Source: Anaerolineales bacterium (lineage in GTDB: Bacteria; Chloroflexota; Anaerolineae; Anaerolineales; E44-bin32). Taken from it: a DNA stretch of 64,000 nucleotides. Positions 25,046 to 64,000 of this stretch are shown here, piece after piece. The position numbers and the translations under genes were made by a program. Within the stretch, counting starts at the first letter, position 1. Each line of letters begins with the position of its first letter. The stretch lies in the NCBI GenBank assembly GCA_034430695.1, contig DAOUEE010000200.1, positions 19,834 through 83,833 of the forward strand, written 5' to 3'. The notes beneath the pieces are model-generated. The model worked only from the letters and a program-made list of their open reading frames with translations, had not been told where the DNA came from and did not search any database.

Positions 25046-25232
25046 CCGCTCATTATACCAACGACGCCTGAGCGGGTTGGAGGGGCGTTTTTCCGGTTGG
25101 GGATTTCGCGAGGATATTTTCGGACGTCCTGGACGCCGTATCTCTTCGCATAGCCATATACGTCGCTCGGTATTCTAGGATGAAAAATGCCCGTGATCCG
25201 GGATGAACCTCTCGCTCACGGGCATCTTAAGG

Positions 25233-25303
25233 CTGGGGGTCGAGGATTCGAACCTCGGCTGACGGATTCAGAGTCCGCTGTCCTACCACTAGACGAACCC
25301 CCA
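25233..25303 (-). tRNA. tRNA-Gln (anticodon CUG)
   Basis: The cloverleaf folds by hand. Acceptor TGGGGGT/ACCCCCA, D-stem GTCT/GGAC, anticodon stem GCGGA/TCCGT with loop CTCTGAA, T-arm CGAGG-TTCGAAT-CCTCG, discriminator G. CCA is not encoded. Confidence 0.9.
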
Positions 25304-49810: not shown

Positions 49811-50895
49811 AACGCTCCGGTTTCCTCCTGCTCGCGATCGCGTTGACGTCACTCATGCTCTTCGCCTGTGGAGAGGGGAAAAGCGGTCGTATGCCCCAAC
49901 CAACCGTGACAGATGGTGTCCAATTAGCGCCGTCTGCAACGACGACTCTATCGGCCGGTAAGGATGTGTCGAATCCCATGCTGGGCGACCCGGCCAAAAC
50001 TCCGCTGCCCGTCGCATTTCCTACCGTCGAGCCGAGTGAAGAACTGGATTGGAGACCACCACCGTACCCCGCGCCTTGGGCTCTGCGTCCAGAAGACCAT
50101 TACTACTTCTGGCGACCCATTCCTTCGGGGCAGGTAAATTGGCCCCATCCCTTCTATCGTTATGGAAGCTCATATTTTGGTGAGTCGGACATCCATACCG
50201 GTGTGGATTTAGGCGCCGATCGCGGGGCGCCCGTGCTGGCCGCCGGTCCGGGTGAGGTGGTGTGGGCTGGCTACGGATTGTATCGGGGCATCGAAGATCC
50301 CACCGATCCGTATGGTCTCGCAGTGGCCATTCGACACGATTTTGGCTATCAGGGGCAGGCACTTTATACGATTTATGCTCATATGCAAGAGGTCTTCGTT
50401 TGGGACGGCCAGCACGTGGAGGCCGGCGAGCAGCTTGGTACGGTGGGAACCACGGGTCACTCCGATGGCCCTCACCTGCACTTCGAAGTGCGGTTGGGGG
50501 AAAATCGCTTCTTCAGTACGAGGAATCCAGAATTGTGGATGGTGCCGCCGGAGGGGTGGGCCGTGTTGGCTGGGCGAATTACGGACACGTACGGCAATCT
50601 TCTGCCCGAATTTCCGTTGAAAATCCGATCGCTGGAGACCGGGAAGAAATGGGAAGTCTGGACTTACGTTCTCACGACGATTCACCCCGATGATTACTAC
50701 AACGAGAACTTCGTGATCAGTGATTTGCCGGCGGGGCCGTACGAGATCACGATCGATTTCGTGGGTTTTCAATACGTCGCATATTTGACCCTCTACGCGG
50801 GAGAAACCAATTTCATCCTCTTTCGCGGCCGCAACGGTTTTGTCGTTCATCCTACGCCGACGCCCGTCGATCTGTCCAGTCCTCCCGATCTATGA
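49807..50895 (+). CDS. M23 family metalloendopeptidase lipoprotein
   Basis: Lipobox LMLFAC. HTGVDLGA...GHSDGPHLHFEV LytM-type motifs. ATGA overlap with the upstream gene. The ORF-track start at 49624 is rejected. Confidence 0.88.
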   Translation: MKRSGFLLLAIALTSLMLFACGEGKSGRMPQPTVTDGVQLAPSATTTLSAGKDVSNPMLGDPAKTPLPVAFPTVEPSEELDWRPPPYPAPWALRPEDHYYFWRPIPSGQVNWPHPFYRYGSSYFGESDIHTGVDLGADRGAPVLAAGPGEVVWAGYGLYRGIEDPTDPYGLAVAIRHDFGYQGQALYTIYAHMQEVFVWDGQHVEAGEQLGTVGTTGHSDGPHLHFEVRLGENRFFSTRNPELWMVPPEGWAVLAGRITDTYGNLLPEFPLKIRSLETGKKWEVWTYVLTTIHPDDYYNENFVISDLPAGPYEITIDFVGFQYVAYLTLYAGETNFILFRGRNGFVVHPTPTPVDLSSPPDL

Positions 50896-50917
50896 GATAC
50901 ACTGAAGCGAGGAGGGG

Positions 50918-52480
50918 ATGATGCGAATGACGGACGTATTTGGGCGTACGCTGCGTCGAGCACCGGCGGGACACGATCCTTCGACGTCGTACGCTGTACG
51001 CGCTGCCCTCGTTCGTTTCATCGATGATCGACTTCTATTCCTTCCACTTGGGTTGCGTGTAGCCAATAATATTACCGAGGCGCTGCTTCAGGGCAACGAG
51101 ACGGTCAATCATGTAGACGGGCCGGGTGACTTTCCTATCGAAGCATGGAGGCGCTTACTCGACGACGAAATCCAATCCTATCGCCAATTACCGCTGTGTC
51201 TGTTCTCTCGCCGATTGGAACGTTTTTCCGATCATCCTAGAGGGCTTGCCAGCCCGGAGTGGGTACGTGGATTGAAGTGGCATTATGCTGCGTCTACGGA
51301 AGCTTCGTTATCCGAATTGTGTGAACGCTGGCTGCAGCAGAACGAAAAACGACTGGACTCTCTTGGCCTTCCTCTCCAACGGCTGGAGTGGGGCGAACGC
51401 AGCTGCGGTTGGGCATACCTGTGTGATTTCGGCCCGGATACTCTGCTGGCTTGTTCCTCGTGCTCCTACATGGCCTCTCACGCGACCGCACACTTCAAAC
51501 GCAGCGAGTTTGTCCCGGAAGATCTGCAATCCCTGGAAATGATTTCGACCCCGGATGCAGACACGATCGAGAGCCTGGCGGCGTTGCTCGACGTTCCTGC
51601 CACAAAAACGTTGAAGGCCGTGTTTCTGCGCAGCGACGATGGAACGGTCGTCCTGGCGCTCATCCGCGGAGATCTGGAAATCAGTATCGAGAAACTCGAG
51701 GACGTGATTGGCCGAAGAGGACTGGTTCCCGCTTCCCGTGCGGAGATCGAGGGAATCGGCGCGGTACCGGGTTATGCAAGTCCGATCGGTTTACACGTTC
51801 GAGAACGACCGGAAACCGAAGGCGTCCTGGTAGTGGCGGATCTTTCGATCGAGCACGGTTTTAATTTCGCCAGCGGCGCCAACAAGCCGGGGTTTCACTT
51901 CAGCGGCGTGAACTATCCTCGCGATTTCGAGGTGACGACGACTGCGGACATTGCCATGCCCAAAGCGGGAGATCCCTGCCCGAAATGCGCGGCGCCACTC
52001 GAATCGCGTGCGGGGATTCGCATCGGCGGTTGGGAAGCGTTTGGAGACGCATTTCATTTTTCGGATGAGGGAGGAAACCTGAATCAGGGTTGGTTGGGTG
52101 CGGGAACCTTGTACCTCGAACCCATTCTCGCCGCTTTGATCGACGTCTATCATCGCGATGGAGTAGCGACCTGGCCGGGTCGATTGGCGCCCTACGATGT
52201 TTACCTCGTGGACCTCCGTTCCCCTCGAGAGACCAATGATGCACTCGAAGGGCTGCAAGCAAAGGGGTTGAGCGTGCTGCTCGATGATCGCGATGTATCT
52301 CCAGGCGTAAAGTTCACGGATGCCGATCTCATCGGATGTCTTTTGCGTATTACGGTCAGCAAGCGGAGCCTGGAAAGAGGGGGTGTAGAACTCGTCTGCC
52401 GCGCAGGCCAGACAGAGGCGATTTACTCCATTACGACGGTCGCAGCCGAGGCTGCAACACTGAAAGACAAATTTATGTAA
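50918..52480 (+). CDS. prolyl-tRNA synthetase-like protein: degenerate class II catalytic core with conserved INS/YbaK-type editing and anticodon-binding domains
   Basis: N-terminus MRMTDVFGRTLRRAP and YRQLPL match bacterial ProRS. The motif 1/2/3 regions are shortened or substituted. The editing domain (ATKTLKAV...IRGDLEI, GANKPGFHFSGVNYPRDF) and C-terminal LAPYDVYLV...LLDDRDVSPGVKFTDADLIG are well conserved. Confidence 0.75.
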   Translation: MMRMTDVFGRTLRRAPAGHDPSTSYAVRAALVRFIDDRLLFLPLGLRVANNITEALLQGNETVNHVDGPGDFPIEAWRRLLDDEIQSYRQLPLCLFSRRLERFSDHPRGLASPEWVRGLKWHYAASTEASLSELCERWLQQNEKRLDSLGLPLQRLEWGERSCGWAYLCDFGPDTLLACSSCSYMASHATAHFKRSEFVPEDLQSLEMISTPDADTIESLAALLDVPATKTLKAVFLRSDDGTVVLALIRGDLEISIEKLEDVIGRRGLVPASRAEIEGIGAVPGYASPIGLHVRERPETEGVLVVADLSIEHGFNFASGANKPGFHFSGVNYPRDFEVTTTADIAMPKAGDPCPKCAAPLESRAGIRIGGWEAFGDAFHFSDEGGNLNQGWLGAGTLYLEPILAALIDVYHRDGVATWPGRLAPYDVYLVDLRSPRETNDALEGLQAKGLSVLLDDRDVSPGVKFTDADLIGCLLRITVSKRSLERGGVELVCRAGQTEAIYSITTVAAEAATLKDKFM

Positions 52481-53867: not shown

Positions 53868-53892
53868 CGTTCGAAACATTAATAAAACAAAA

Positions 53893-54177
53893 AGCGATGA
53901 CGGAGACGAGTACATCCCTGTAGGATAGCAAGCGAGTCCGGGTTGGTGTGAGCCGGATATACCCGGTGGGTGGAAAATCCCTCCAGAGCTGTGACCTGAA
54001 AGCAGTTGACACGCTACTAAGGAAACCGGCTTCGCCAGCCGTTATCCACGGCGCGAACATAATCCTGATGTTTCAGGACGTGTTCGATCGAGTGCCTGCG
54101 TCGCTGCAGGAACCGGGGTGGTACCGCGGGAGAACCGTTGCCTCTCGTCCCTATATGAGGACGAGAGTTTTTGTTTT
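53893..54177 (+). promoter_or_regulatory. class I T-box riboswitch leader (probable Ile specifier AUC) with a terminator/antiterminator switch
   Basis: Stem I has K-turn AGCGATGA (53893-53900) paired to AGAGCT (53985-53990), ACGAGTA, AG bulge AGCGAG and distal loop GGTGTGA (53945-53951). The specifier loop is GAAAATCC (53973-53980). F-box CCGTTA is at 54039-54044 and the T-box sequence AACCGGGGTGGTACCGCG at 54111-54128. The terminator is CTCTCGTCC/GGACGAGAG followed by TTTTTGTTTT (54142-54177). Confidence 0.88.
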
Positions 54178-54277: not shown

Positions 54278-54989
54278 ATGACCGAACCTCTGTATCATCA
54301 GGATGCGTACTGTAAGACGTTCGAAGCCGAGGTCATCGCAGCTTCGGATGACGGAGTCGTTCTCGATCGATCCGCGTTTTATCCCGGTGGAGGTGGTCAA
54401 CCTTGCGACCACGGATTGCTTCGGGCCGGCGATGTCGTTTTTCCCGTCCGCAAAGTGAAGCGCAGGGACGGCCAAATCTGGCACCAGATCGATGGTGGAC
54501 CGCTGCAAGCCGGCGCAGCGGTTGCGGGCGAACTCGATTGGGAACGACGATATTCATTGATGCGCGTGCATACCGCCATGCACATCCTCTGTGGCGTCAT
54601 CTGGCGTGACTACGGGGCGGCGGTAACGGGCGGGAACATGGAGCCGTTCCGGGGCAGAATGGACTTCGAATTTGAATCGATGCGCAAGGAACTCGTCGAA
54701 GAAATCGAAGAGAAGATCAACCAGGAAGTTGCTGCCGCGCGGCCCGTAAAGACCGACATGCTACCCCGCAAGGAAGCGTTTCAAATCCCGGACCTCATCC
54801 GGACCAAGATCAACCTGCTGCCTCCAGCGATCCAGGTCGTTCGCATCGTGGAGATCGAGGGATTGGACTTACAGGCGGATGGCGGCACACACGTTGCCAA
54901 CACGAAAGAAGTCGGGGGAAATTCACATCGTGGATTACAAGAGTAAAGGTGCGATCAACAAGCGTTTGGTGGTTGAATTGGAAGCTTGA
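54278..54989 (+). pseudogene. alaX: alanyl-tRNA editing protein AlaX (AlaX-M size), with the reading frame broken by a 1-nt indel in a G5 run
   Basis: The annotated frame ends ...HVANTKEVGGNSHRGLQE* at 54946. Deleting one G from 54914-54918 gives ...HVANTKEVGEIHIVDYKSKGAINKRLVVELEA* with its stop at 54987-54989. That is the expected AlaX C-terminus and sits 8 nt before the ileS ATG. Confidence 0.8.
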
Positions 54990-54997
54990 GGTGAAAA

Positions 54998-57900
54998 ATG
55001 TTCAAAGCAGTACCTAGTCAAATCGATTTCGTCGCGCAGGAACACGAGATCCTCAAGTTCTGGGAACAGACGAACGCCTTTGAGAAGCTGATAGCCTTGC
55101 GCCAGGACGGACCGATATGGTCGTTCATCGATGGCCCGATCACGGCCAACAATCCGATGGGCGTCCACCATGGATGGGGCCGGACGTACAAAGATCTATT
55201 CCATCGCTATAAGAGTATGCAAGGGCACCATACACGCTACCAGAATGGCTTCGACTGTCAGGGATTGTGGGTCGAGGTCAACGTCGAGCGGGATAAGGGT
55301 TTCAAAACCAAGCACGATATCGAAGAGTTCGGCCTGGCGAAGTTCGTCGTACTTTGCAAACAGCGGGTGCTCAACTACGCTGCCGTGCAAACCGAGCAAA
55401 GTATCCGGCTGGGATACTGGATGGATTGGAACGACCCGCAGCGGCTGCACTGGCTGAGTGAAAAGCTGGGTGAAGATCCGGCCCAACGCATCGAATTCCC
55501 AGGTCCCAATGGCCCGGTGAAAAATAGCGTGGAATACATCGTCGGACATCTGGGAATGCCGGAATTGGGAGGATCCTACTTCACCTTTTCCGACGAGAAC
55601 AATTACACCATCTGGTCGGTGCTCAAATCGTGCGACGAACGCGGCTGGATCTATAAAGGAACGGATGTGATGCCCTGGTGCTGGCGCTGCGGCACCGGGC
55701 TGAGTCAGCATGAGATCGTGACCGAAGGATACCAGGAGAAGACCCATCCCAGCATCACGTTGCGATTTCCGCTCAAAGACCGGCCGGGTGAGAGCCTCTT
55801 GGTCTGGACGACGACACCCTGGACGCTGACGAGCAACGTGGCGGCGGCTGTCGGCCCGGAACTGACGTACGCGCGCGTGAAGCAAGGCGACGAGTACTTC
55901 TATCTCAGCCGCGGTACGCTGCACATGCTGAAAGGCGAATACGAGGTCGTAGGGGAACTTCCCGGTTCGGCAATGGAAGGCTGGGCGTATGAGGGTCCCT
56001 TCGACGAACTGCCGGCACAAATCGAGAAAAAATCTCCGGATGCGCACCGCGTGATCCTTTGGGATGAGGTCGGGGAGGAAGAAGGCACCGGCATCGTGCA
56101 CATCGCGCCGGGCTGCGGCGCCGAAGACTTCGCCCTGGGTAAGGAATACGAGTTACCGGTCATCGCGCCGCTGAATGAATCCGGGCACTTTGGGGATCAC
56201 TTCGGTTGGTTGAGCGGGATGCACGTCAATGGCATCTCGCAGCCGATCTTCGAGAATCTTGCCGAGAAGGGGCTGTCTTACCGTGTCGACGACTATACCC
56301 ACCGCTACCCGGTATGCTGGCGCTGCGGCGAGGATTTGGTGTTCCGTCTGGTGGATGAATGGTTCATCTCGATGGGCGTTCAGTTGGACAAGCCGTACGA
56401 AGAAGTAACCCAGGCGGAGAAGGACGACAACCTGCGCTACCAGATGATGGAAGTGGTGATCGACGAGACCAACTGGTATCCGTCCTTCGGATTCGAGCGC
56501 GAATTGGATTGGCTGCGCAACATGCACGATTGGATGATCTCGAAAAAGCGCTACTGGGGACTTGCCCTTCCGATTTGGGAGTGCAGCAAATGCGGTAATT
56601 ACGACATCATCGGCAGCAAGGAGGAACTACAAGAACGTGCCGTCGCCGGATGGGAAGAATTCGAAGGCCATTCGCCGCATCGGCCGTTCGTCGATGCCGT
56701 GAAAATCGAATGCAGCCAGTGCGGTGGCCAGGTCGAACGGATCCCGGATGTGGGCAATCCGTGGTTGGATGCGGGAATCGTTGGAATGAGTACGCTTTCG
56801 TACCATTCGAATCCCGAATATTGGCGTAAGTGGTTCCCCGCCGATTTGATCAGTGAGAGTTTTCCGGGACAGTTCCGTAACTGGTTTTACAGTCTCCTGG
56901 CCATGAGCACGATTCTCGAACGCAAGGCTCCGTTCCGCGATGTCTTCACCTATGCCACGCTGCTCGCAGAAGACGGCCGCGCCATGCATAAGTCCTGGGG
57001 TAACGCCATTGAATTCAACGAAGCCGCGGATAAAATGGGCGTCGATGTGATGCGCTGGCTCTACTGCAACCACAAGCCCGAGCGCGACCTCATTTTTGGC
57101 TATCACCGCGCGGACGAGGTCCGGCGGCAGTTCTTGATCCCACTGTGGAACGTGTATTCCTTCTTCGTCACTTACGCCAATATCGACGAATGGGTACCTG
57201 ATGGAAGCCGAAAGGTCTCCTACAGCCAGATCGATAACTGGATACTCTCCCGACTCAACGAGCTGATGAATCAGATCAAGAACGGCCTGGACAACTACGA
57301 GCCGGATGCTGCTACCGATGCTGTCAATCAATACCTCGACGATCTCAGCAATTGGTATTTACGCCGGAGCCGCAGGCGATTTTGGGCGAAAGCCGGCGCG
57401 AGCGAAGATTCCGATGAAGACAAACATGCCGCTTATTCCACGCTGTATGAGGTGCTGACAACGCTGGCCAAGATCCTGGCCCCGTTCGTGCCGTTCGTGA
57501 CGGAGGCGATGTACCAGAACCTCGTCCGTACGGTCGACCAGGAAGCCCCGGAAAGTGTGCATCACTGCGATTGGCCGCTGGCGAATCCAAAACTCATCGA
57601 TCAAAAATTGATGGCGGACATGGCGCTGGTGACGAAGCTGGTCTCTTTGGGCCACGCTGCGCGCAACAAAGCCAATCGTAAACTGCGTCAACCGCTGAGC
57701 CAGGCTGCGTTCTTCGTCGGAACGAAGGACGAAGCGGAGACGGTACGTCAATATGCGGATCTGATCCTCGAGGAATTGAACGTGAAGGAGATCCGCCTCC
57801 TGGACGCCGTTTCCGAAGCCGCTGCTTTGCGAATCAAACCGCTTCCGAAACAGTTGGGACAGAAATACGGCTCGCGTTTTCCGGCCATCCGAAAGGCGAT

Positions 57901-58366
57901 TCAATCCATGCGGCCAGAGGATTCGGAGGACTTCGCCGTAAAGCTCTTGAAAGAGGGTGGTACTTTCACGATCGATGTTGAGGGGGAGAAGATCGAGGTC
58001 CTGCCGGAAGAAGTTGAGGTTCAGATCGACGCCCACGAAGGTTTTGTCGCCGTTGCCGAAGGTGCGAAGGTCGTTGCGCTCAACACGGAATTGACGCCGG
58101 ATTTGATGCTCGAAGGTCTGGCGCGGGAATTCGTGCGGCGCATACAGGACCTGCGCAAACAAGCTGATCTGCGGGTGGACGAACGTATTCGCATCGAATA
58201 CAAAGCCAGCGAGCGGCTCGGCGAAGCGGTAAAACATCACCGCGACTACATCCTGGGTGAAACCCTTGGCGTCTCCCTCGAAGCTGTCGAAGCACCTTCT
58301 GGACTCGCTACCGCTTCGCACGATTTCGATGGAGAGACTCTCGTCGTGGCGCTGCAGGAAGCATAG
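54998..58366 (+). CDS. ileS: isoleucine--tRNA ligase (long, type 2-like)
   Basis: 1122 aa with GPITANNPMGVHHGWGRTYKD (HIGH region), a CP1 editing domain, Zn-type CWRC pairs, and AMHKSWGN at the KMSKS position. Confidence 0.95.
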   Translation: MFKAVPSQIDFVAQEHEILKFWEQTNAFEKLIALRQDGPIWSFIDGPITANNPMGVHHGWGRTYKDLFHRYKSMQGHHTRYQNGFDCQGLWVEVNVERDKGFKTKHDIEEFGLAKFVVLCKQRVLNYAAVQTEQSIRLGYWMDWNDPQRLHWLSEKLGEDPAQRIEFPGPNGPVKNSVEYIVGHLGMPELGGSYFTFSDENNYTIWSVLKSCDERGWIYKGTDVMPWCWRCGTGLSQHEIVTEGYQEKTHPSITLRFPLKDRPGESLLVWTTTPWTLTSNVAAAVGPELTYARVKQGDEYFYLSRGTLHMLKGEYEVVGELPGSAMEGWAYEGPFDELPAQIEKKSPDAHRVILWDEVGEEEGTGIVHIAPGCGAEDFALGKEYELPVIAPLNESGHFGDHFGWLSGMHVNGISQPIFENLAEKGLSYRVDDYTHRYPVCWRCGEDLVFRLVDEWFISMGVQLDKPYEEVTQAEKDDNLRYQMMEVVIDETNWYPSFGFERELDWLRNMHDWMISKKRYWGLALPIWECSKCGNYDIIGSKEELQERAVAGWEEFEGHSPHRPFVDAVKIECSQCGGQVERIPDVGNPWLDAGIVGMSTLSYHSNPEYWRKWFPADLISESFPGQFRNWFYSLLAMSTILERKAPFRDVFTYATLLAEDGRAMHKSWGNAIEFNEAADKMGVDVMRWLYCNHKPERDLIFGYHRADEVRRQFLIPLWNVYSFFVTYANIDEWVPDGSRKVSYSQIDNWILSRLNELMNQIKNGLDNYEPDAATDAVNQYLDDLSNWYLRRSRRRFWAKAGASEDSDEDKHAAYSTLYEVLTTLAKILAPFVPFVTEAMYQNLVRTVDQEAPESVHHCDWPLANPKLIDQKLMADMALVTKLVSLGHAARNKANRKLRQPLSQAAFFVGTKDEAETVRQYADLILEELNVKEIRLLDAVSEAAALRIKPLPKQLGQKYGSRFPAIRKAIQSMRPEDSEDFAVKLLKEGGTFTIDVEGEKIEVLPEEVEVQIDAHEGFVAVAEGAKVVALNTELTPDLMLEGLAREFVRRIQDLRKQADLRVDERIRIEYKASERLGEAVKHHRDYILGETLGVSLEAVEAPSGLATASHDFDGETLVVALQEA

Positions 58367-58528
58367 GCTCCTTGCAGCAAGACGACGATCCCAGATCAGG
58401 TTTTGGTGAGTGTACTTTTTCGAAGTCTCCAAGGGATTCTTGCCCTTGGAGACTTCGTATACATTACAGAAGCGCACTACGCAAGGTGCTGACGATTCGG
58501 TACAATTGCCTTGGGAGCAATTCCCCGT

Positions 58529-59095
58529 ATGGAGGTAGATTTGACGAAAGCACGAAAATACCTGACCTTGATCGGCATTGCGGGTCTCGTCGTAGCGCTC
58601 GATCAATGGACGAAGTACCTGGTCCGCACACAGCTGCAGGTTGGAGAGACCTGGATGCCCATCGACTGGCTGGCGCCGTACGTGCGTGTCGTGCATTGGA
58701 GCAACACGGGGGCAGCGTTTGGGATGATTCCCAGCGGAAGTATTTTTTTCACCATCGTCGCCATCCTGGTTTCGATCGCCATCATCATCTATTATCCAAG
58801 GATTCCAGCGAGGCAGGTCGCCGTGCGTTTCGCCTTGGCGCTGCAGCTGGGCGGTGCGCTGGGTAATCTCACCGACCGCCTCATATCAAATTTTACGGTC
58901 ACGGATTTCATCTCCGTCGGCACCTTTCCGGTGTTCAACGTCGCCGATTCGAGCGTGTCGATCGGATGCGCGATTCTCATCGCTGCGATGTGGATCGAGG
59001 AACGTAAAGAACGCGCTGGAAAGCCGGCCGTTCCTGCATCTACGGAGAATTCGAGTGAGGATCCGGTTTCCAACCTGGAGCAACCCGTTGAGTGA
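58529..59095 (+). CDS. lspA: lipoprotein signal peptidase II
   Basis: LDQWTK, NTGAAFG and FNVADS motifs with four TM helices. Start is ambiguous (TTG 58511, ATG 58529 or TTG 58541). Confidence 0.9.
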   Translation: MEVDLTKARKYLTLIGIAGLVVALDQWTKYLVRTQLQVGETWMPIDWLAPYVRVVHWSNTGAAFGMIPSGSIFFTIVAILVSIAIIIYYPRIPARQVAVRFALALQLGGALGNLTDRLISNFTVTDFISVGTFPVFNVADSSVSIGCAILIAAMWIEERKERAGKPAVPASTENSSEDPVSNLEQPVE

Positions 59096-60006
59096 GTGAA
59101 CGACGCATCCGCTGCCAGGCTCCATCCTCCGGGGGAAGACTAGACTTGTGTTTGGTCGACAACACGAGCGACCTATCCCGTACGCACATCCAACGCTTGA
59201 TACGTAACGGCTTGGTTACGATCGATGGAAGCGTTGTCCGTAAGCCGGGTCATCAGCTTGAAGGTGGTGAGTGGATTGAGGCGTGCGTTCCCGAACCTGC
59301 ACCATCCGGTCTCGTACCCGAATCCATTTCCCTCGACGTCGTTTTTGAAAATGAGCAGGTCCTGATCGTCAATAAGCCGGCAGGCATGGTCGCACATCCG
59401 TCGGCCGGACATACAGGCGGCACACTGGTCCACGCGGCATTGGCGCATGCACCGGATATCGAAGGTGTAGGTGGAGAGGTCCGGCCCGGCGTCGTGCATC
59501 GCCTGGATAAGGACACTTCGGGCTTAATCATCCTGGCGAAGAGCGACTTGGCGCATCGTTTCATCCAACAGCAATTCAAGAATCGCGAGGTCGAAAAGAC
59601 CTATCTCGCGCTGGTCGATGGCAGGCCCCCAACACCCGAAGGAAAGATCGAAGCGCCGATCGGACGTGATCCGCGCAATCGCAAGCGCATGGCCGTTCTT
59701 ACTCCAGGACGGGGCCGTCCCGCGGCTACGATATACCATACCGTCGAAACGTATCAGCAGTACACTTTGCTCGAAGTCCATCCCCTCACTGGAAGGACGC
59801 ATCAAATACGACTCCATCTGGATTTCATCGGTTGTCCGGTAGCGGGCGATAAACAGTATGGGAAGCGAAGCTCGCGCCATTTACTTTCACGCCAATTCCT
59901 GCATGCCTACAAACTGCGTTTTATTCTCCCGGGCGACGACCGACCCACGGAATTCACGGCGCCTTTGCCGGAAGATCTGCAGCACTTTTTGCAGCAAATC
60001 AAGTAA
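59092..60006 (+). CDS. rluD: RluA-family 23S rRNA pseudouridine synthase (RluD-like)
   Basis: N-terminal S4 domain and catalytic HRLDKDTSGL. GTG start overlaps the lspA stop. Confidence 0.9.
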   Translation: MSERRIRCQAPSSGGRLDLCLVDNTSDLSRTHIQRLIRNGLVTIDGSVVRKPGHQLEGGEWIEACVPEPAPSGLVPESISLDVVFENEQVLIVNKPAGMVAHPSAGHTGGTLVHAALAHAPDIEGVGGEVRPGVVHRLDKDTSGLIILAKSDLAHRFIQQQFKNREVEKTYLALVDGRPPTPEGKIEAPIGRDPRNRKRMAVLTPGRGRPAATIYHTVETYQQYTLLEVHPLTGRTHQIRLHLDFIGCPVAGDKQYGKRSSRHLLSRQFLHAYKLRFILPGDDRPTEFTAPLPEDLQHFLQQIK

Positions 60007-60027
60007 TCTGCGGAGGGTTTACCTTCA

Positions 60028-61068
60028 ATGGAACGAGTAGATTTTCGATCGGATACCGTGACGCTTCCCACGCCGGAAATGCGCGCGGCGATGGCTTCGG
60101 CCGAAGTGGGGGACGACGTATACGGCGAAGACCCCAGCATAAACCGGCTGCAAAACCTGGCTGCCGGACTTCTCGGCAAACAGGCTGCTCTGTTCGTGCC
60201 TTCCGGAACGATGGGGAACCTGGCTTCGATCCTGGCCCACTGCCAGCGCGGCGATGAAGTGATCCTCGGGGATCAATCCCATGTCTTCATCAATGAGGCG
60301 GGGGGAATAGCAGCATTCGGTGGAGTCCAGCCGCATACGCTCCCCAACGAAAGTGACGGAACGCTGGATTTGCATGCGATCGAATGCGCCATCCGCCAGG
60401 ATGACGTGCATTATCCCATCAGCCGCCTGATCGTCCTCGAGAACACCCATAATCGTTGCGGTGGCATCCCCTTGACGCTGGAATACAGCCGTGCGGTCGG
60501 CGAGTTGGCCAAGAAACATGGATTGAAATTCCACATCGATGGAGCACGGATATTCAACGCAGCTGTGAAACTGGGCATCTCCGCAGCCGATTTAGCTGCA
60601 CCAGCGGATTCCGTCACCTTCTGCCTCTCCAAGGGACTCTGTGCGCCAGTCGGCAGCGTGATCTGCGGCGACGAGGCGTTCATTACCCGTGCGCACCGTA
60701 TGCGCAAGGCGTTGGGCGGTGGGATGCGCCAGGCGGGTGTCCTGGCTGCGGCCGGAATCGTGGCCTTGAATTCGATGATCGAACGACTGTCCGACGATCA
60801 TCGCCGGGCGCGCGCCATCGCCGACGGCCTGCGGAATATCCCAGGACTCTCGCTGCGCTATGAACGCCCCGCTACGAACATGGTCTATATAGATTTCACG
60901 CCGCAAGCCAAAATGGATGCTTCCGCGGTTGTAGAAGCGATGCGAGAGCAGGGAATCATCCTGCGCGCCTCCGGCGACGGGTCGATCCGGCTGGTCGTTC
61001 ATTATTGGATCGATGACGAAGCGGTCGAACGTTTGTTATCCAATTTCGAACGGTTGTTGCGTGGTTGA
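60028..61068 (+). CDS. ltaE: low-specificity L-threonine aldolase
   Basis: DFRSDTVT N-terminus and a PLP-fold pattern (FCLSKGL with the Lys). Confidence 0.88.
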   Translation: MERVDFRSDTVTLPTPEMRAAMASAEVGDDVYGEDPSINRLQNLAAGLLGKQAALFVPSGTMGNLASILAHCQRGDEVILGDQSHVFINEAGGIAAFGGVQPHTLPNESDGTLDLHAIECAIRQDDVHYPISRLIVLENTHNRCGGIPLTLEYSRAVGELAKKHGLKFHIDGARIFNAAVKLGISAADLAAPADSVTFCLSKGLCAPVGSVICGDEAFITRAHRMRKALGGGMRQAGVLAAAGIVALNSMIERLSDDHRRARAIADGLRNIPGLSLRYERPATNMVYIDFTPQAKMDASAVVEAMREQGIILRASGDGSIRLVVHYWIDDEAVERLLSNFERLLRG

Positions 61069-61236
61069 ACTGAGGTCTTGTGGTATCATAGCGGCGGGAT
61101 GAAAGATCGTATGCACGCTGTTGTATTTCCATATATCTATCCTGGGGGCGGCCAGCGCCCCAGCGAACTCATATGAACACGCCCAGCGGATTTTAGGAGA
61201 TCTATCGGGTAAATTCCTTACTGAGAAGCGACCAAT

Positions 61237-61270
61237 GCGTGGGCTGTGTCAGCCCACGCCTGATTTTTTA
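61237..61270 (+). terminator. intrinsic terminator-like hairpin 20 nt upstream of the tyrS ATG
   Basis: GCGTGGGCT-gtgtc-AGCCCACGC, a 9-bp stem, followed by CTGATTTTTTA. Confidence 0.55.
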
Positions 61271-61290
61271 ATGTCGACGGAGCCATTGCG

Positions 61291-62526
61291 ATGGATGAAA
61301 TGACTTTCGAACAACAAGCCGATTTGCTGATGCAAGGAACTGAATACGGGGACGAAAATCTCAAACAATCGATGCGAGAGGAATTATTGAATCGCCTGAA
61401 ATTAGCAAAGAAGGAAGGACGAACGCTGCGCGTATACTGCGGCTTCGATCCACGCACGACCGATTTGCACCTCGGACATACGGTGCCGATGCGCAAACTG
61501 CGCCAATTCCAAGACCTGGGGCACGAAATCATCTTTTTAATCGGCCGTTTCACGTCATTGGTCGGCGATCCATCCGACAAGGACAAAGTGCGCGCGCAGT
61601 TATCCCCGGAACAGGCGCAGAAAAACGCCGAAACGTACGCCAACCAGGCGTTCCGCATCCTCGATCCGCAGCGGACCAAGGTCGAATACAACGACACCTG
61701 GTTGTCGAAGCTGACGTTCGGGGATCTGATTCATCTTGCCTCGAATTTCACCATCCAGCAGTTCCTTTCGCGAGAGGCTTTTCGAAAACGCTGGGATCAG
61801 GAAGATCCGATTTTCCTTCACGAGTTCTTCTATGCCTTGATGCAGGGATACGATGCCTATCATCTGAAGACCGACGTACAGGTTGGCGGGACCGATCAGC
61901 TCTTCAACATCGTCACCGCAGCCCGGAAGTTGATGGAAGCCAAGGGGGAGAAACCGAACATCGCCATCATTCTCGGCATCCTTCCCGGGACGGACGGTGT
62001 GGTTAAGATGAGCAAATCACTCGGAAATCACATCCCGCTCAACACCACGCCGGAAGACATGTATGGCAAAGTGATGAGTGTGCCCGATGCTGCGATGGGA
62101 GATTACTTCCGGCTGGTGACTCGCTGGACGCCACCGGAGATCGAAGCCATCGAAGCGGGCCTGAATTCCGGAAACTCCCACCCGCGAGACGTGAAGATGA
62201 AACTGGCGCGGGAGATCGTCGAGATTTATTACGGCGAAGATGCGGTCCAGCAGGCAGAGGAGATGTTTATAAAGGTATTTCAGGAGCAAGAAACGCCTTC
62301 CGACATGCCGGATTTCGCCGTCCAACCGGGATCGTCTCTGGTGGCAATCATGCGGGATGCAGGACTGGTGAAGAGCAACAGTGAAGCTCGCCGCCTGGTC
62401 AATCAAAAAGGCGTACGTCTGGGCGATGTCGTCGTCGAGGATGCCGATCAGGCCATGGAAATCAAGACGGCGATCGTGCTGCGGGTGGGGAAACGGCGGT
62501 TCGTGAGGCTGGTGCCTGAAGAATGA
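61291..62526 (+). CDS. tyrS: tyrosine--tRNA ligase
   Basis: HLGH, KMSKSLGN and a C-terminal S4-like domain. Confidence 0.95.
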   Translation: MDEMTFEQQADLLMQGTEYGDENLKQSMREELLNRLKLAKKEGRTLRVYCGFDPRTTDLHLGHTVPMRKLRQFQDLGHEIIFLIGRFTSLVGDPSDKDKVRAQLSPEQAQKNAETYANQAFRILDPQRTKVEYNDTWLSKLTFGDLIHLASNFTIQQFLSREAFRKRWDQEDPIFLHEFFYALMQGYDAYHLKTDVQVGGTDQLFNIVTAARKLMEAKGEKPNIAIILGILPGTDGVVKMSKSLGNHIPLNTTPEDMYGKVMSVPDAAMGDYFRLVTRWTPPEIEAIEAGLNSGNSHPRDVKMKLAREIVEIYYGEDAVQQAEEMFIKVFQEQETPSDMPDFAVQPGSSLVAIMRDAGLVKSNSEARRLVNQKGVRLGDVVVEDADQAMEIKTAIVLRVGKRRFVRLVPEE

Positions 62527-62563
62527 ATAACTGACATCCATATTTTGGAAAGACAGATTATAA

Positions 62564-62590
62564 GGGCTCTGAACCAGGGCCCTTTTTCTA
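62564..62590. terminator. hairpin between convergent tyrS and rtcB
   Basis: GGGCTCTG-aac-CAGGGCCC followed by TTTTTCT. Confidence 0.55.
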
Positions 62591-62615
62591 TTCGTCGACC
62601 GAAACCAGATTCAGC

Positions 62616-64000
62616 TCAGCCTTTAATCACAATGAGCGGCTTGAGACGGGCGACCTTTTTAGCGATTCCCGCCTCGGATACGACGTCGACGACGCTATCC
62701 ACGTCTTTGTAGGCTTGCGGCGCTTCTTCCGCCAGTCCCGGCATCGATCCGGCGCGGATGTGAATCCCTTGGTTTTCGAGCTTGGCCAGGAGCTGGTCGC
62801 CTCGCACGGTGCGTTTCGCCTGCCTGCGGCTCATCGTTCGTCCTGCGCCGTGACACGAAGAGCCGAATGCCAGATCCATGCTCGCCTTCGTACCTAACAA
62901 TACCCATGATCCCGTCCCCATACTACCGGGAACCATCACCGGCTGGCCCAACTCTCGATACTCATCGGGCAGCCCTTCAAAGCCGGGTCCGAACGCGCGT
63001 GTGGCACCCTTGCGGTGCACACAGACGGTTACTTCCTCCCCTTCGATGCTGTGAGTCTCGATCTTTCCCATGTTGTGGGCGATATCGTAGACCAGAGAGA
63101 GATCCCAATCGCCTACCTTGCCGGCCAGGGCTTCCTCGAAAGCCATGCGGGCGTGATGGGTCAGAACCTGACGGTTGGCGAAGGCGTAATTGGCTGCACA
63201 GGCCATGGCGGCGAAATAACGCTTCCCTTCCGGAGAATCCAACGGCGCGCAGACGAGTTCCCGGTCCGGCAGCCGGATGTTGTAGCGCTGGACGGCCTTC
63301 TGGAGTTCGCGAACGTAGTCCGAACAAATCTGATGGCCAAATCCGCGCGAACCACAGTGAATTTGAACGGCCAGGTAATCGGCCCGCAAACCCATCGCCT
63401 GGGCGGCTTCCGCATGGAAGATCTCCTCGACGATGTCGACTTCGATGAAGTGATTTCCGGCGCCCAACGTCCCCAACTGCGGCCGGCCGCGCTGTTTGGC
63501 GCGATCGCTCACGCAGCCAGGATCGGCATCCGCCAAACGTCCCCGTTCCTCCGTTCGCAGCACATCCTCGGGCGTGGCGAATCCGTTTCGTTCGGTCCAC
63601 TCCGAACCCTGGCGGAGTACGTTGTCGAGAGCCTTCGCCGTAAGTCTGACGCTGCCCTTCACGCCTACGCCGCTGGGGCAATGCGCATACAGCGCGCCGG
63701 CCAGATCGTCCAACCATGGCTCGGCTTCGTCTGCGGAAATTCCACTCGCCAGAACTCGAACGCCACAGTTGATGTCGTATCCGATTCCACCAGGGGAAAT
63801 GACGCCGTCGGGCAACTTCGTCGCCGCCACGCCGCCGATGGGAAAGCCGTATCCCTGGTGGACGTCCGGCATGACCACGACGTGGCTCACAAGGCCGGGA
63901 AGGGTCGCGGCATTGATGGCTTGCTCGATCGACCGATCCCCGAGGGTCGCTTCCAGGATCTTCTCGCTGGCGAAGATTCGCACCGGCACACGCATGTCCT
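62616..64000 (-). CDS. rtcB: RNA-splicing ligase RtcB (the N-terminus probably continues beyond the window edge)
   Basis: [21 protein letters not shown] and a C-terminal GAGR motif. The frame stays open upstream of the Met at 63995, and archaeal-type RtcB has about 20 more N-terminal residues. Confidence 0.9.

Follow-up and report, generated by a model that had tools for sequence, protein, structure and literature searches.

A prolyl-tRNA synthetase homologue of Anaerolineae with a decayed aminoacylation site and conserved editing and anticodon-binding domains

A 64,000-nucleotide stretch of DNA from an Anaerolineales bacterium (contig DAOUEE010000200.1 of assembly GCA_034430695.1, positions 19,834 to 83,833 of the forward strand), here referred to as the window, contains a gene whose product is a homologue of the bacterial-type (P-type) prolyl-tRNA synthetases (ProRS) and which, as judged from its sequence, is no longer able to activate proline or to charge tRNA. 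The three-domain layout of its relatives has been kept, with a catalytic core into which an INS editing domain is inserted between motif 2 and motif 3, followed by a class IIa anticodon-binding domain (ABD) at the C-terminus, as evident from Pfam assignments, a colinear alignment and a Foldseek comparison. In our preferred explanation, which we regard as probable, charging passed to a ProRS of the archaeal/eukaryote type (E-type), and the P-type protein has been kept as a deacylase of Ala-tRNAPro that is guided by the anticodon. A sequence-only reading of the same DNA had described the gene product as a full-length ProRS homologue with a decayed aminoacylation core, a view on which Pfam, equivalog scores and alignment agree. 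The features of the gene are listed below, with their evidence in brackets, where dN/dS denotes the ratio of nonsynonymous to synonymous substitution rates.

50910 to 50915, plus strand: Shine-Dalgarno sequence AGGAGG (read from the sequence; strong)
50918 to 52480 including the stop codon, plus strand: ProRS-like editing protein of 520 residues, a predicted aminoacylation-dead P-type ProRS homologue (open reading frame, Pfam, equivalog scores, match in the PDB)
50918 to 51448, plus strand: N-terminal class II core remnant, residues 1-177 (alignments, conservation, dN/dS, model)
51116 to 51121, plus strand: deletion junction D67-G68 (MAFFT alignments; boundary ambiguous by a few residues)
51449 to 52012, plus strand: INS editing domain, residues 178-365 (Pfam PF04073, invariant columns, residue mapping)
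52013 to 52174, plus strand: C-terminal core remnant, residues 366-419 (alignments, dN/dS of 0.10)
52175 to 52477, plus strand: class IIa ABD, residues 420-520 (Pfam PF03129, invariant residues, dN/dS of 0.11)

Results

A full-length synthetase homologue with a dismantled synthetic site

The open reading frame at 50918-52480 is uninterrupted and starts 22 nucleotides after the stop codon of an upstream M23-peptidase gene (50893-50895). Its second ATG at 50921 is the likeliest start, since the spacing to the AGGAGG sequence fits best there and since most relatives share the resulting length of 519 residues; the gene thus probably begins at this position. We found no record of the exact 520-residue protein in a large assembly collection. 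The nearest relative (P0001) is 98% identical, and this and other close relatives (P0002, P0005) all originate from a single JGI metagenome series (samples 3300056879-3300057032). The best relatives in the PDB are full-length bacterial ProRS proteins such as the enzyme from E. faecalis (2J3L, 2.8e-40), which is colinear from residue ~75 to residue ~500.

The class II core (PF00587, tRNA-synt_2b) gives no Pfam hit in the protein, even at E<=1, and the two NCBIfam equivalog models of bacterial ProRS score far below their cutoffs, with 217.7 bits against 558 for NF006625 and 136.7 bits against 306.7 for TIGR00409. To locate the underlying changes, individual residues were compared in MAFFT alignments with E. 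coli ProS, canonical Anaerolineae ProRS and relatives of the window protein. The N-terminal core remnant keeps the sequences GRTLR (residues 9-13), LPLG (42-45) and SYRQLP (87-92), in line with the earlier description of a retained N-terminal start, SYRQLP and Cys element, and it lacks TGRW...THEE and motif 2. A gap at the SGRW/PTHEE region had been proposed before; the gap is real, its size is 36-37 residues and not about 30, and it removes the equivalent of E. coli residues ~76-112 (QPADLWQESGRW...GPTHEE) including the proline-binding THEE loop. In motif 2, the alignment places a deletion at E142, an Asp at R144, a Ser at R151 and W115 at E154. The position of the invariant R140 is still an arginine in the window protein, but it varies in close relatives. 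The loop of sequence GHIFQLGTKYS (GHxFKLGT) is shortened beyond recognition and replaced within the C-terminal core remnant, where W372 is conserved; motif 2 and this loop had rightly been called unalignable. Motif 3 is degenerate as well, although the register given for it in the sequence-only reading was offset by a few residues: the correct pairing is GAGTLYLEP against GCYGIGVTR, which puts P402 opposite the invariant R450. The proper alignment that had been named as a test of the proposal thus finds the class II motifs and the ligand-binding residues absent in the window protein and in its family. Judged on every feature that defines the synthetic site, the protein does not qualify as a 'proline--tRNA ligase', although its structural homology to P-type ProRS is clear and its INS domain is genuine. 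In clade A (see below), conserved tryptophans at positions 115, 121, 138, 165 and 372 occupy former active-site positions, which suggests that they fill the former pocket.

These changes bear on the possibility that the protein retains ProRS activity in spite of an extremely divergent active site, perhaps even as the only such enzyme in its genome. The naming of some members as 'proline--tRNA ligase' by annotation pipelines would fit with this assumption, and no second ProRS of the same genome appeared among the matches listed, but the arginines of motifs 2 and 3, the THEE loop and the GH loop are all gone, their replacements differ by subclade and tryptophans are found at pocket positions. 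No class II synthetase is known to function once its motif 2 and motif 3 arginines and its amino-acid-binding loops are missing, and we consider an active enzyme extremely unlikely. On these grounds, another ProRS would have to exist in the host.

Editing and anticodon-binding domains are intact

The INS domain contrasts with the core in its preservation. PF04073 (tRNA_edit) matches residues 211-331 with 75.9 bits against a gathering cutoff of 25.5 (E 3.8e-21). With the E. coli residues given first, T257/P258 correspond to T211/P212 of the window protein, I263 to I217, L266 to L220, K279 to K233, the GxxxP motif to G285-P289, D350 to D308, the GAN motif to G320-A321-N322, H369 to H327 and R377-D378 to R335-D336; T216 also belongs to this intact set. 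The INS residues are invariant in family alignments of 26 and 92 sequences, and an intact editing domain, as claimed previously, is borne out by these residues and by a degree of conservation equal to that of genuine synthetases.

From mutational studies, we take I263, L266 and H369 to set the alanine specificity of the E. coli INS domain. All three are kept, as I217, L220 and H327, and the INS domain of the decayed proteins is as close to canonical INS domains as those of the canonical enzymes are among themselves. Both observations argue against trans-editing of another aminoacyl group on tRNAPro, be it Cys, Ser, a proline analogue or another non-protein amino acid, which we regard as improbable in spite of the diverse and relaxed specificities found within the INS superfamily (PMC11295145).

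At the linkers that connect the INS domain to the core, we observed a CxxC...CxxC site consisting of C179 and C182 (nucleotides 51452-51463) and C354 and C357 (51977-51988). The decayed family shows no or almost no variation at these positions. Canonical Anaerolineae ProRS also carry the site, E. coli ProS does not, and it is probably a structural zinc site that fixes the orientation of the INS domain.

The ABD is detected by PF03129 (HGTP_anticodon) at residues 442-500 (E 1.2e-08). Its signature LLDDRxxSPGVKFTDADLIG is intact, and D456, R458, G463, D470 and G473 are invariant in the family alignments. That this domain is intact had also been recognized before, and its conservation is that of canonical enzymes.

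Purifying selection and a predicted three-domain fold

To estimate selection, orthologues were compared at the codon level. Between the window gene and P0002, at a dS of 0.6, dN/dS is 0.19 for the whole gene, which is therefore not a pseudogene, and by domain it amounts to 0.39 in the N-terminal core remnant, 0.15 in INS, 0.10 in the C-terminal core remnant and 0.11 in the ABD. Column conservation follows a similar pattern: in the core it is 0.47-0.56 in decayed proteins (0.47-0.54 in the N-terminal remnant) versus 0.72-0.75 in canonical ones, compared to 0.61-0.65 versus 0.62-0.64 for INS and ABD together and 0.61-0.64 versus 0.62 for the ABD alone. The constraint on INS and ABD equals that in genuine synthetases, and relaxation is limited to the core.

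An AlphaFold2 model calculated from the 92-sequence alignment is predicted with high confidence (pLDDT 93.9, pTM 0.91), including the N-terminal core remnant with pLDDT values mostly above 90, and it superposes in Foldseek on the full three-domain structure of E. faecalis ProRS 2J3L with a TM score of 0.83 and a root mean square deviation (rmsd) of 3.9 Å. Together with the purifying selection in all domains, the match of the model to a three-domain ProRS upholds the earlier view that the whole scaffold of the synthetase has been kept, and the modelled protein is a maintained and folded one.

The same data address the question of whether the gene could be a functionless duplicate that is slowly dying. 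The relaxed core with its dN/dS of 0.39 and the continuum from partly to fully decayed forms described below would be expected from such a relic. The frame and length have, however, been kept down to ~36% identity across more than 100 clusters, dN/dS is 0.10-0.15 in INS, the C-terminal core remnant and ABD at a dS of 0.6, the editing residues are invariant, the Shine-Dalgarno sequence is strong and synteny is conserved, and we thus find this explanation very unlikely. Expression is in turn likely given the strong Shine-Dalgarno sequence and a synteny that is kept down to 46% identity.

A family with recurrent loss of the synthetic site

A homologue search identified ~75 clusters of proteins of 500-560 residues without PF00587, at identities ranging from 98% to ~36%, whose named members come from metagenome-assembled genomes (MAGs) of Anaerolineae, Anaerolineales or Anaerolineaceae. 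Canonical ProRS of 570-590 residues appear in the same search with identities of <=38%. The deletion is common to all short forms, which lack motifs 2 and 3, and the replacing sequences differ among three subclades A, B and C. This view was extended by searching a profile against 1.84 billion representatives of 50%-identity clusters. The 150 best-match representatives carry no taxonomy, and 139 of them are full-length. Among these best matches listed, the equivalents of K279, D350 and H369 are kept in all 139, and the four scored aminoacylation features (HEE, R140, E142 and R450) are kept together in about five of the 139. The deletion is found in 90 of the 139, and the remaining 49 keep the length of the segment with a scrambled sequence. 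Decayed forms account for at least about 130 clusters and are still dominant at the end of the matches listed. Since the pattern is seen again in well over 100 sequence clusters, it is far beyond chance.

The shared deletion had suggested a single origin of the decayed forms, which was rejected in favor of multiple decays on the basis of a tree of the INS and ABD regions (neighbour-joining, 265 columns, 184 sequences, 100 bootstraps). The main decayed clade combines A and C in 55 sequences (bootstrap 80). Clade B joins a canonical group containing P0046 and P0048 (bootstrap 97) and lies apart from the main decayed group in all 100 replicates. Intermediates, namely L022, P0103/P0089 and P0090/P0116, each join different canonical enzymes. 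In L022, which, like the locus L023 discussed below, came from a scan of a genome collection with the family alignment, the deletion is present and motif 2 is intact, and a graded series exists from partly to fully decayed forms. The patterns used in that scan were too general, and the matches listed were mainly canonical ProRS from all phyla, with none from clade A. The tree suggests that the synthetic site has decayed at least two times independently, with INS and ABD always spared, and the number of decays is probably four to six. The proposal of a conserved paralogue clade holds in the sense that the family is conserved, but the tree points to several independent decays instead of one clade.

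The naming of family members is inconsistent, and there is no curated model for the decayed family. In GenBank MAG records, several of the decayed proteins from clade B (P0067, P0077 and members of their clusters; MFN3762043.1, MGQ9466986.1 and further accessions) carry the name 'proline--tRNA ligase', and others are listed as 'His/Gly/Thr/Pro-type tRNA ligase C-terminal domain-containing protein', 'YbaK/EbsC family protein' or 'hypothetical protein'. A full-length, partly degenerate P-type ProRS was also observed at ~10001-11704 of L009, from a MAG labelled Gemmatimonadota, with GTSHEG in place of xTHEE, IGSLHRFSP in place of GHxFKLGT and GSHGMGIGR in motif 3. It hints at either a similar decay outside Chloroflexota or a mis-binned contig.

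E-type ProRS as candidate charging partner

A tblastn search of the 64-kb window with canonical P-type ProRS and the E-type ProRS of T. thermophilus found no second ProRS. When the Thermus query was compared to the retrieved loci, an Anaerolineales MAG contig (L023, 8458-11800) showed an intact E-type ProRS of 479 residues, 56% identical to the Thermus enzyme, directly upstream of an intact P-type ProRS. The E-type family is widespread in Anaerolineales and highly conserved, with two seeds each returning at least 120 clusters at >=75-80% identity, and its named clusters, among the matches listed, are all from Anaerolineales, Anaerolineae or Chloroflexota. A metagenome scan around E-type genes identified four further tandems of E-type and intact P-type genes (L135, L139, L141, L146) and no tandem with a decayed P-type copy. 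With five contigs carrying such tandems, a redundant state with two ProRS is directly observed in Anaerolineales.

In the five tandems, the P-type gene directly follows the E-type gene, either overlapping or at a distance of up to ~100 nucleotides, and the P-type copies carry Asn in place of His in the GHxFKLG loop (GNIFKLG or GNIFQLG; the contig of L146 ends before the loop), a replacement that might indicate that constraint on the loop has begun to relax. In other loci (L097, L098-L103, L109-L115), the E-type proS gene has a conserved neighbourhood of its own, between a LOG-family (lysine-decarboxylase-like) gene and a DNA-alkylation-repair-like gene. No Chloroflexota E-type ProRS was found in a plasmid collection, and an apparent E-type reading frame in L057 was discarded as a spurious reading frame of high GC content.

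A proposed role in trans-editing

The INS domain does not recognize tRNA by itself and relies on the ABD of ProRS to read G35/G36 (Das et al., PMC3973320; PMC11295145). In comparison, ProXp-ala recognizes the acceptor stem, and YbaK has to form a complex with ProRS (PMC3973320; PMC11295145). An INS domain alone would thus not be enough for an organism that needs its activity, which would explain why the ABD and a rigid core have been kept alongside it. Where ProRS has no INS domain, a trans-editing factor is used (PMC3973320), and as the E-type enzyme is devoid of INS, a function of the window protein as Ala-tRNAPro proofreader for E-type ProRS is the most economical reading.

The process that we envisage would start with a lineage that comes to contain both E-type and P-type ProRS genes, whereupon the synthetic site of the P-type enzyme would become redundant and decay repeatedly. 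In the remaining protein, the ABD would dock tRNAPro through G35/G36, the dead but folded class II core, probably still dimeric, would act as a rigid scaffold that sets the distance and orientation of INS, and the INS site with its equivalents of K279, GxxxP, D350 and H369 would hydrolyse Ala-tRNAPro. The mischarged substrate would be made by a separate enzyme, most likely the INS-less E-type ProRS, whose presence in the same genome as the window gene we infer. Deacylase activity, specificity for alanine and dimerisation of the window protein are likewise predictions.

Several observations weigh against this proposal. No E-type gene is located within 10 kb of the decayed genes examined, nor in the 64-kb window, and among the matches listed we found no contig or genome that holds a decayed gene together with an E-type or other active ProRS. 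No E-type protein from CP070708.1, a complete chromosome carrying a clade A member, was among the best 120 matches listed in each of two E-type searches, an outcome that is uninformative and not a true negative. Attempts to link decayed and E-type genes by the proximity of GenBank accessions did not yield a match among those listed, nor was there any sample overlap between P0005 and either P0234 or P0164. The ProRS-like gene appears to be co-transcribed with the cell-wall M23 peptidase and not with translation genes, and neither a leader RNA nor a T-box precedes it. In P-type ProRS, the motif 2 loop makes contact with the acceptor stem, and its loss might weaken productive binding of tRNA, and the tree behind the proposed repeated decay is limited as a simple neighbour-joining analysis of 265 columns.

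A different way to account for the conservation of ABD and scaffold would be that the protein binds tRNAPro for a non-hydrolytic role, as a factor that sequesters or chaperones the tRNA, as a regulatory subunit similar to HisZ or as a platform to which another factor, such as a YbaK-like deacylase or the E-type ProRS, would dock. Regulatory paralogues of aminoacyl-tRNA synthetases are known (HisZ, PMC5388404; others, PMC9437257) and YbaK acts via a complex with ProRS (PMC3973320). Such a role leaves unexplained why the hydrolytic INS residues (K, GxxxP, D, GAN, H and RD) do not vary in any of the 139 representatives when the remainder of the protein drifts, and there are no proline-biosynthesis or regulatory genes near the ProRS-like gene. 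We therefore judge a non-hydrolytic role to be unlikely and favor hydrolysis of Ala-tRNAPro.

Genomic neighbourhood

Clade A genes with identities as low as 46% share a stable gene order in their surroundings, and one member is located on the complete chromosome CP070708.1 (3,405,363 bp). Canonical P-type genes, clade B genes and singleton decayed genes each reside in different neighbourhoods, so that synteny does not distinguish orthologues from paralogues here. The clade A order and the further features of the window are as follows.

Clade A order, first part: M78-like, PD40 beta-propeller, M23 peptidase, ProRS-like, MBL-fold hydrolase, RNase H-like, AlaX
Clade A order, continued: IleRS, LspA, RluD-type pseudouridine synthase, threonine-aldolase-like, TyrRS, RtcB
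25231 to 25303, minus strand: tRNA-Gln(CUG), the only tRNA gene in the window
53888 to 54155, plus strand: T-box leader RF00230, flanked by the RNase H-like gene and alaX (93.1 bits; gathering score 93)
54998 to 58366: ileS, followed by lspA
59092 to 60006: rluD-type pseudouridine synthase gene, followed by a threonine-aldolase-like gene
61291 to 62526: tyrS; 62616 to 63995, minus strand: rtcB

The region downstream, at 54998-63995, is rich in translation and tRNA genes. The T-box leader contains the specifier AUC (Ile) at 53977-53979 and the T-box sequence at 54116-54128, and the same leader is found in L087 (12962-13228). It appears to control an alaX-ileS unit that is separate from the ProRS-like gene, and the pairing of the Ala-tRNA editing factor alaX with isoleucine sensing is an unusual combination. 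It is the only T-box in the scans of ProRS leaders, in which we found no T-box or other leader upstream of the canonical P-type or E-type genes scanned (L023 and L097 for E-type). The sequence-only reading had pointed to alaX at a distance of 1.8 kb. The position is correct, with a start at 54278, but the functional link is weak: because alaX-ileS forms a separate isoleucine-sensing T-box unit, proximity is no evidence of co-regulation.

In alaX (start ~54278), the window carries an extra G at 54914-54918 (GGGGG versus GGGG in the 98% identical contig L107), which shifts the last ~24 codons and leads to an end at 54946 (222 residues) instead of 54989 (236 residues, the length found in relatives). 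Either the homopolymer was misread in sequencing or alaX carries a true frameshift.

Discussion

The window protein resembles P-type ProRS enzymes with an INS domain, such as E. coli ProS and E. faecalis ProRS (2J3L), in its fold, full-length homology, INS residues and ABD signature, and it differs from them by the missing aminoacylation site and by scores below both equivalog cutoffs. The closest functional precedent is provided by the ThrRS-cat/ThrRS-ed pair of Crenarchaeota. ThrRS-ed is said to keep a defective catalytic domain and an anticodon-binding domain. Like ThrRS-ed, the window protein combines an editing domain with a defective catalytic domain and an ABD. In the crenarchaeal system, charging and editing are split over two genes, and the editing protein works in trans on what its partner produces (PMC3592468). 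The window protein differs from ThrRS-ed by belonging to another synthetase family, by an unrelated editing domain and by its occurrence in bacteria instead of archaea. Moreover, its presumed catalytic partner is a non-orthologous E-type enzyme and not a truncated paralogue, and its decay appears to be recurrent.

Among editing factors, ProXp-ala belongs to the same PF04073 superfamily, catalyses the reaction predicted for the window protein and fills this niche where the ProRS of an organism has no INS domain (PMC3973320). ProXp-ala is, however, a single domain without an ABD, which reads G72/A73 and ignores the anticodon (PMC3973320, PMC10164551), whereas the window protein, with ~520 residues, contains an ABD and a core scaffold and is predicted to be guided by the anticodon. 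A 2024 review describes the trans-editors of this superfamily as consisting, without exception, of a single domain (PMC11295145). In Bacillus thuringiensis, ProRS1 and ProRS2 represent both ProRS types in one bacterium, and both are active on P-type tRNAPro (PMC11229370). The same state with two ProRS is found on the five Anaerolineales contigs, and the decayed P-type copy differs by the absence of a synthetic site. HisZ and ProRSx illustrate that proteins derived from aminoacyl-tRNA synthetases can be kept after their canonical function was lost or changed (PMC5388404, PMC9437257). HisZ is a regulatory subunit without editing role and ProRSx an active synthetase with a changed tRNA, and neither is editing-only. 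ProRSx is also the only diverged ProRS duplicate in a 2022 review (PMC9437257). In our literature search, we found no description of an aminoacylation-dead full-length ProRS and no paper on prolyl-tRNA synthetase together with Anaerolineae.

Taken at its widest, our proposal would be that Anaerolineae have repeatedly turned a full-length ProRS into an editing-only pseudo-synthetase, constituting a new class of multi-domain, anticodon-guided trans-editors that is paired with a horizontally acquired E-type ProRS and forms a bacterial counterpart of ThrRS-cat/ThrRS-ed, with intermediates that record the dismantling of the active site while the scaffold is kept. We lean towards this broader interpretation, with somewhat less confidence than towards the role in editing on which it builds.

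The family has consequences for genome annotation, since 'proline--tRNA ligase' labels can mask the true essential ProRS in thousands of Chloroflexota MAGs and mislabelled members can distort inferences on completeness or metabolism. If the proposal is correct, the family would introduce a new architecture among trans-editing factors and offer a natural experiment on how ABD and core position tRNAPro so that its CCA end reaches INS, a process that is poorly understood in the field. With the synthetic site gone, editing would be open to study without competing aminoacylation, and the many independent and partial decays would provide a rare time series of the evolution of a pseudo-enzyme.

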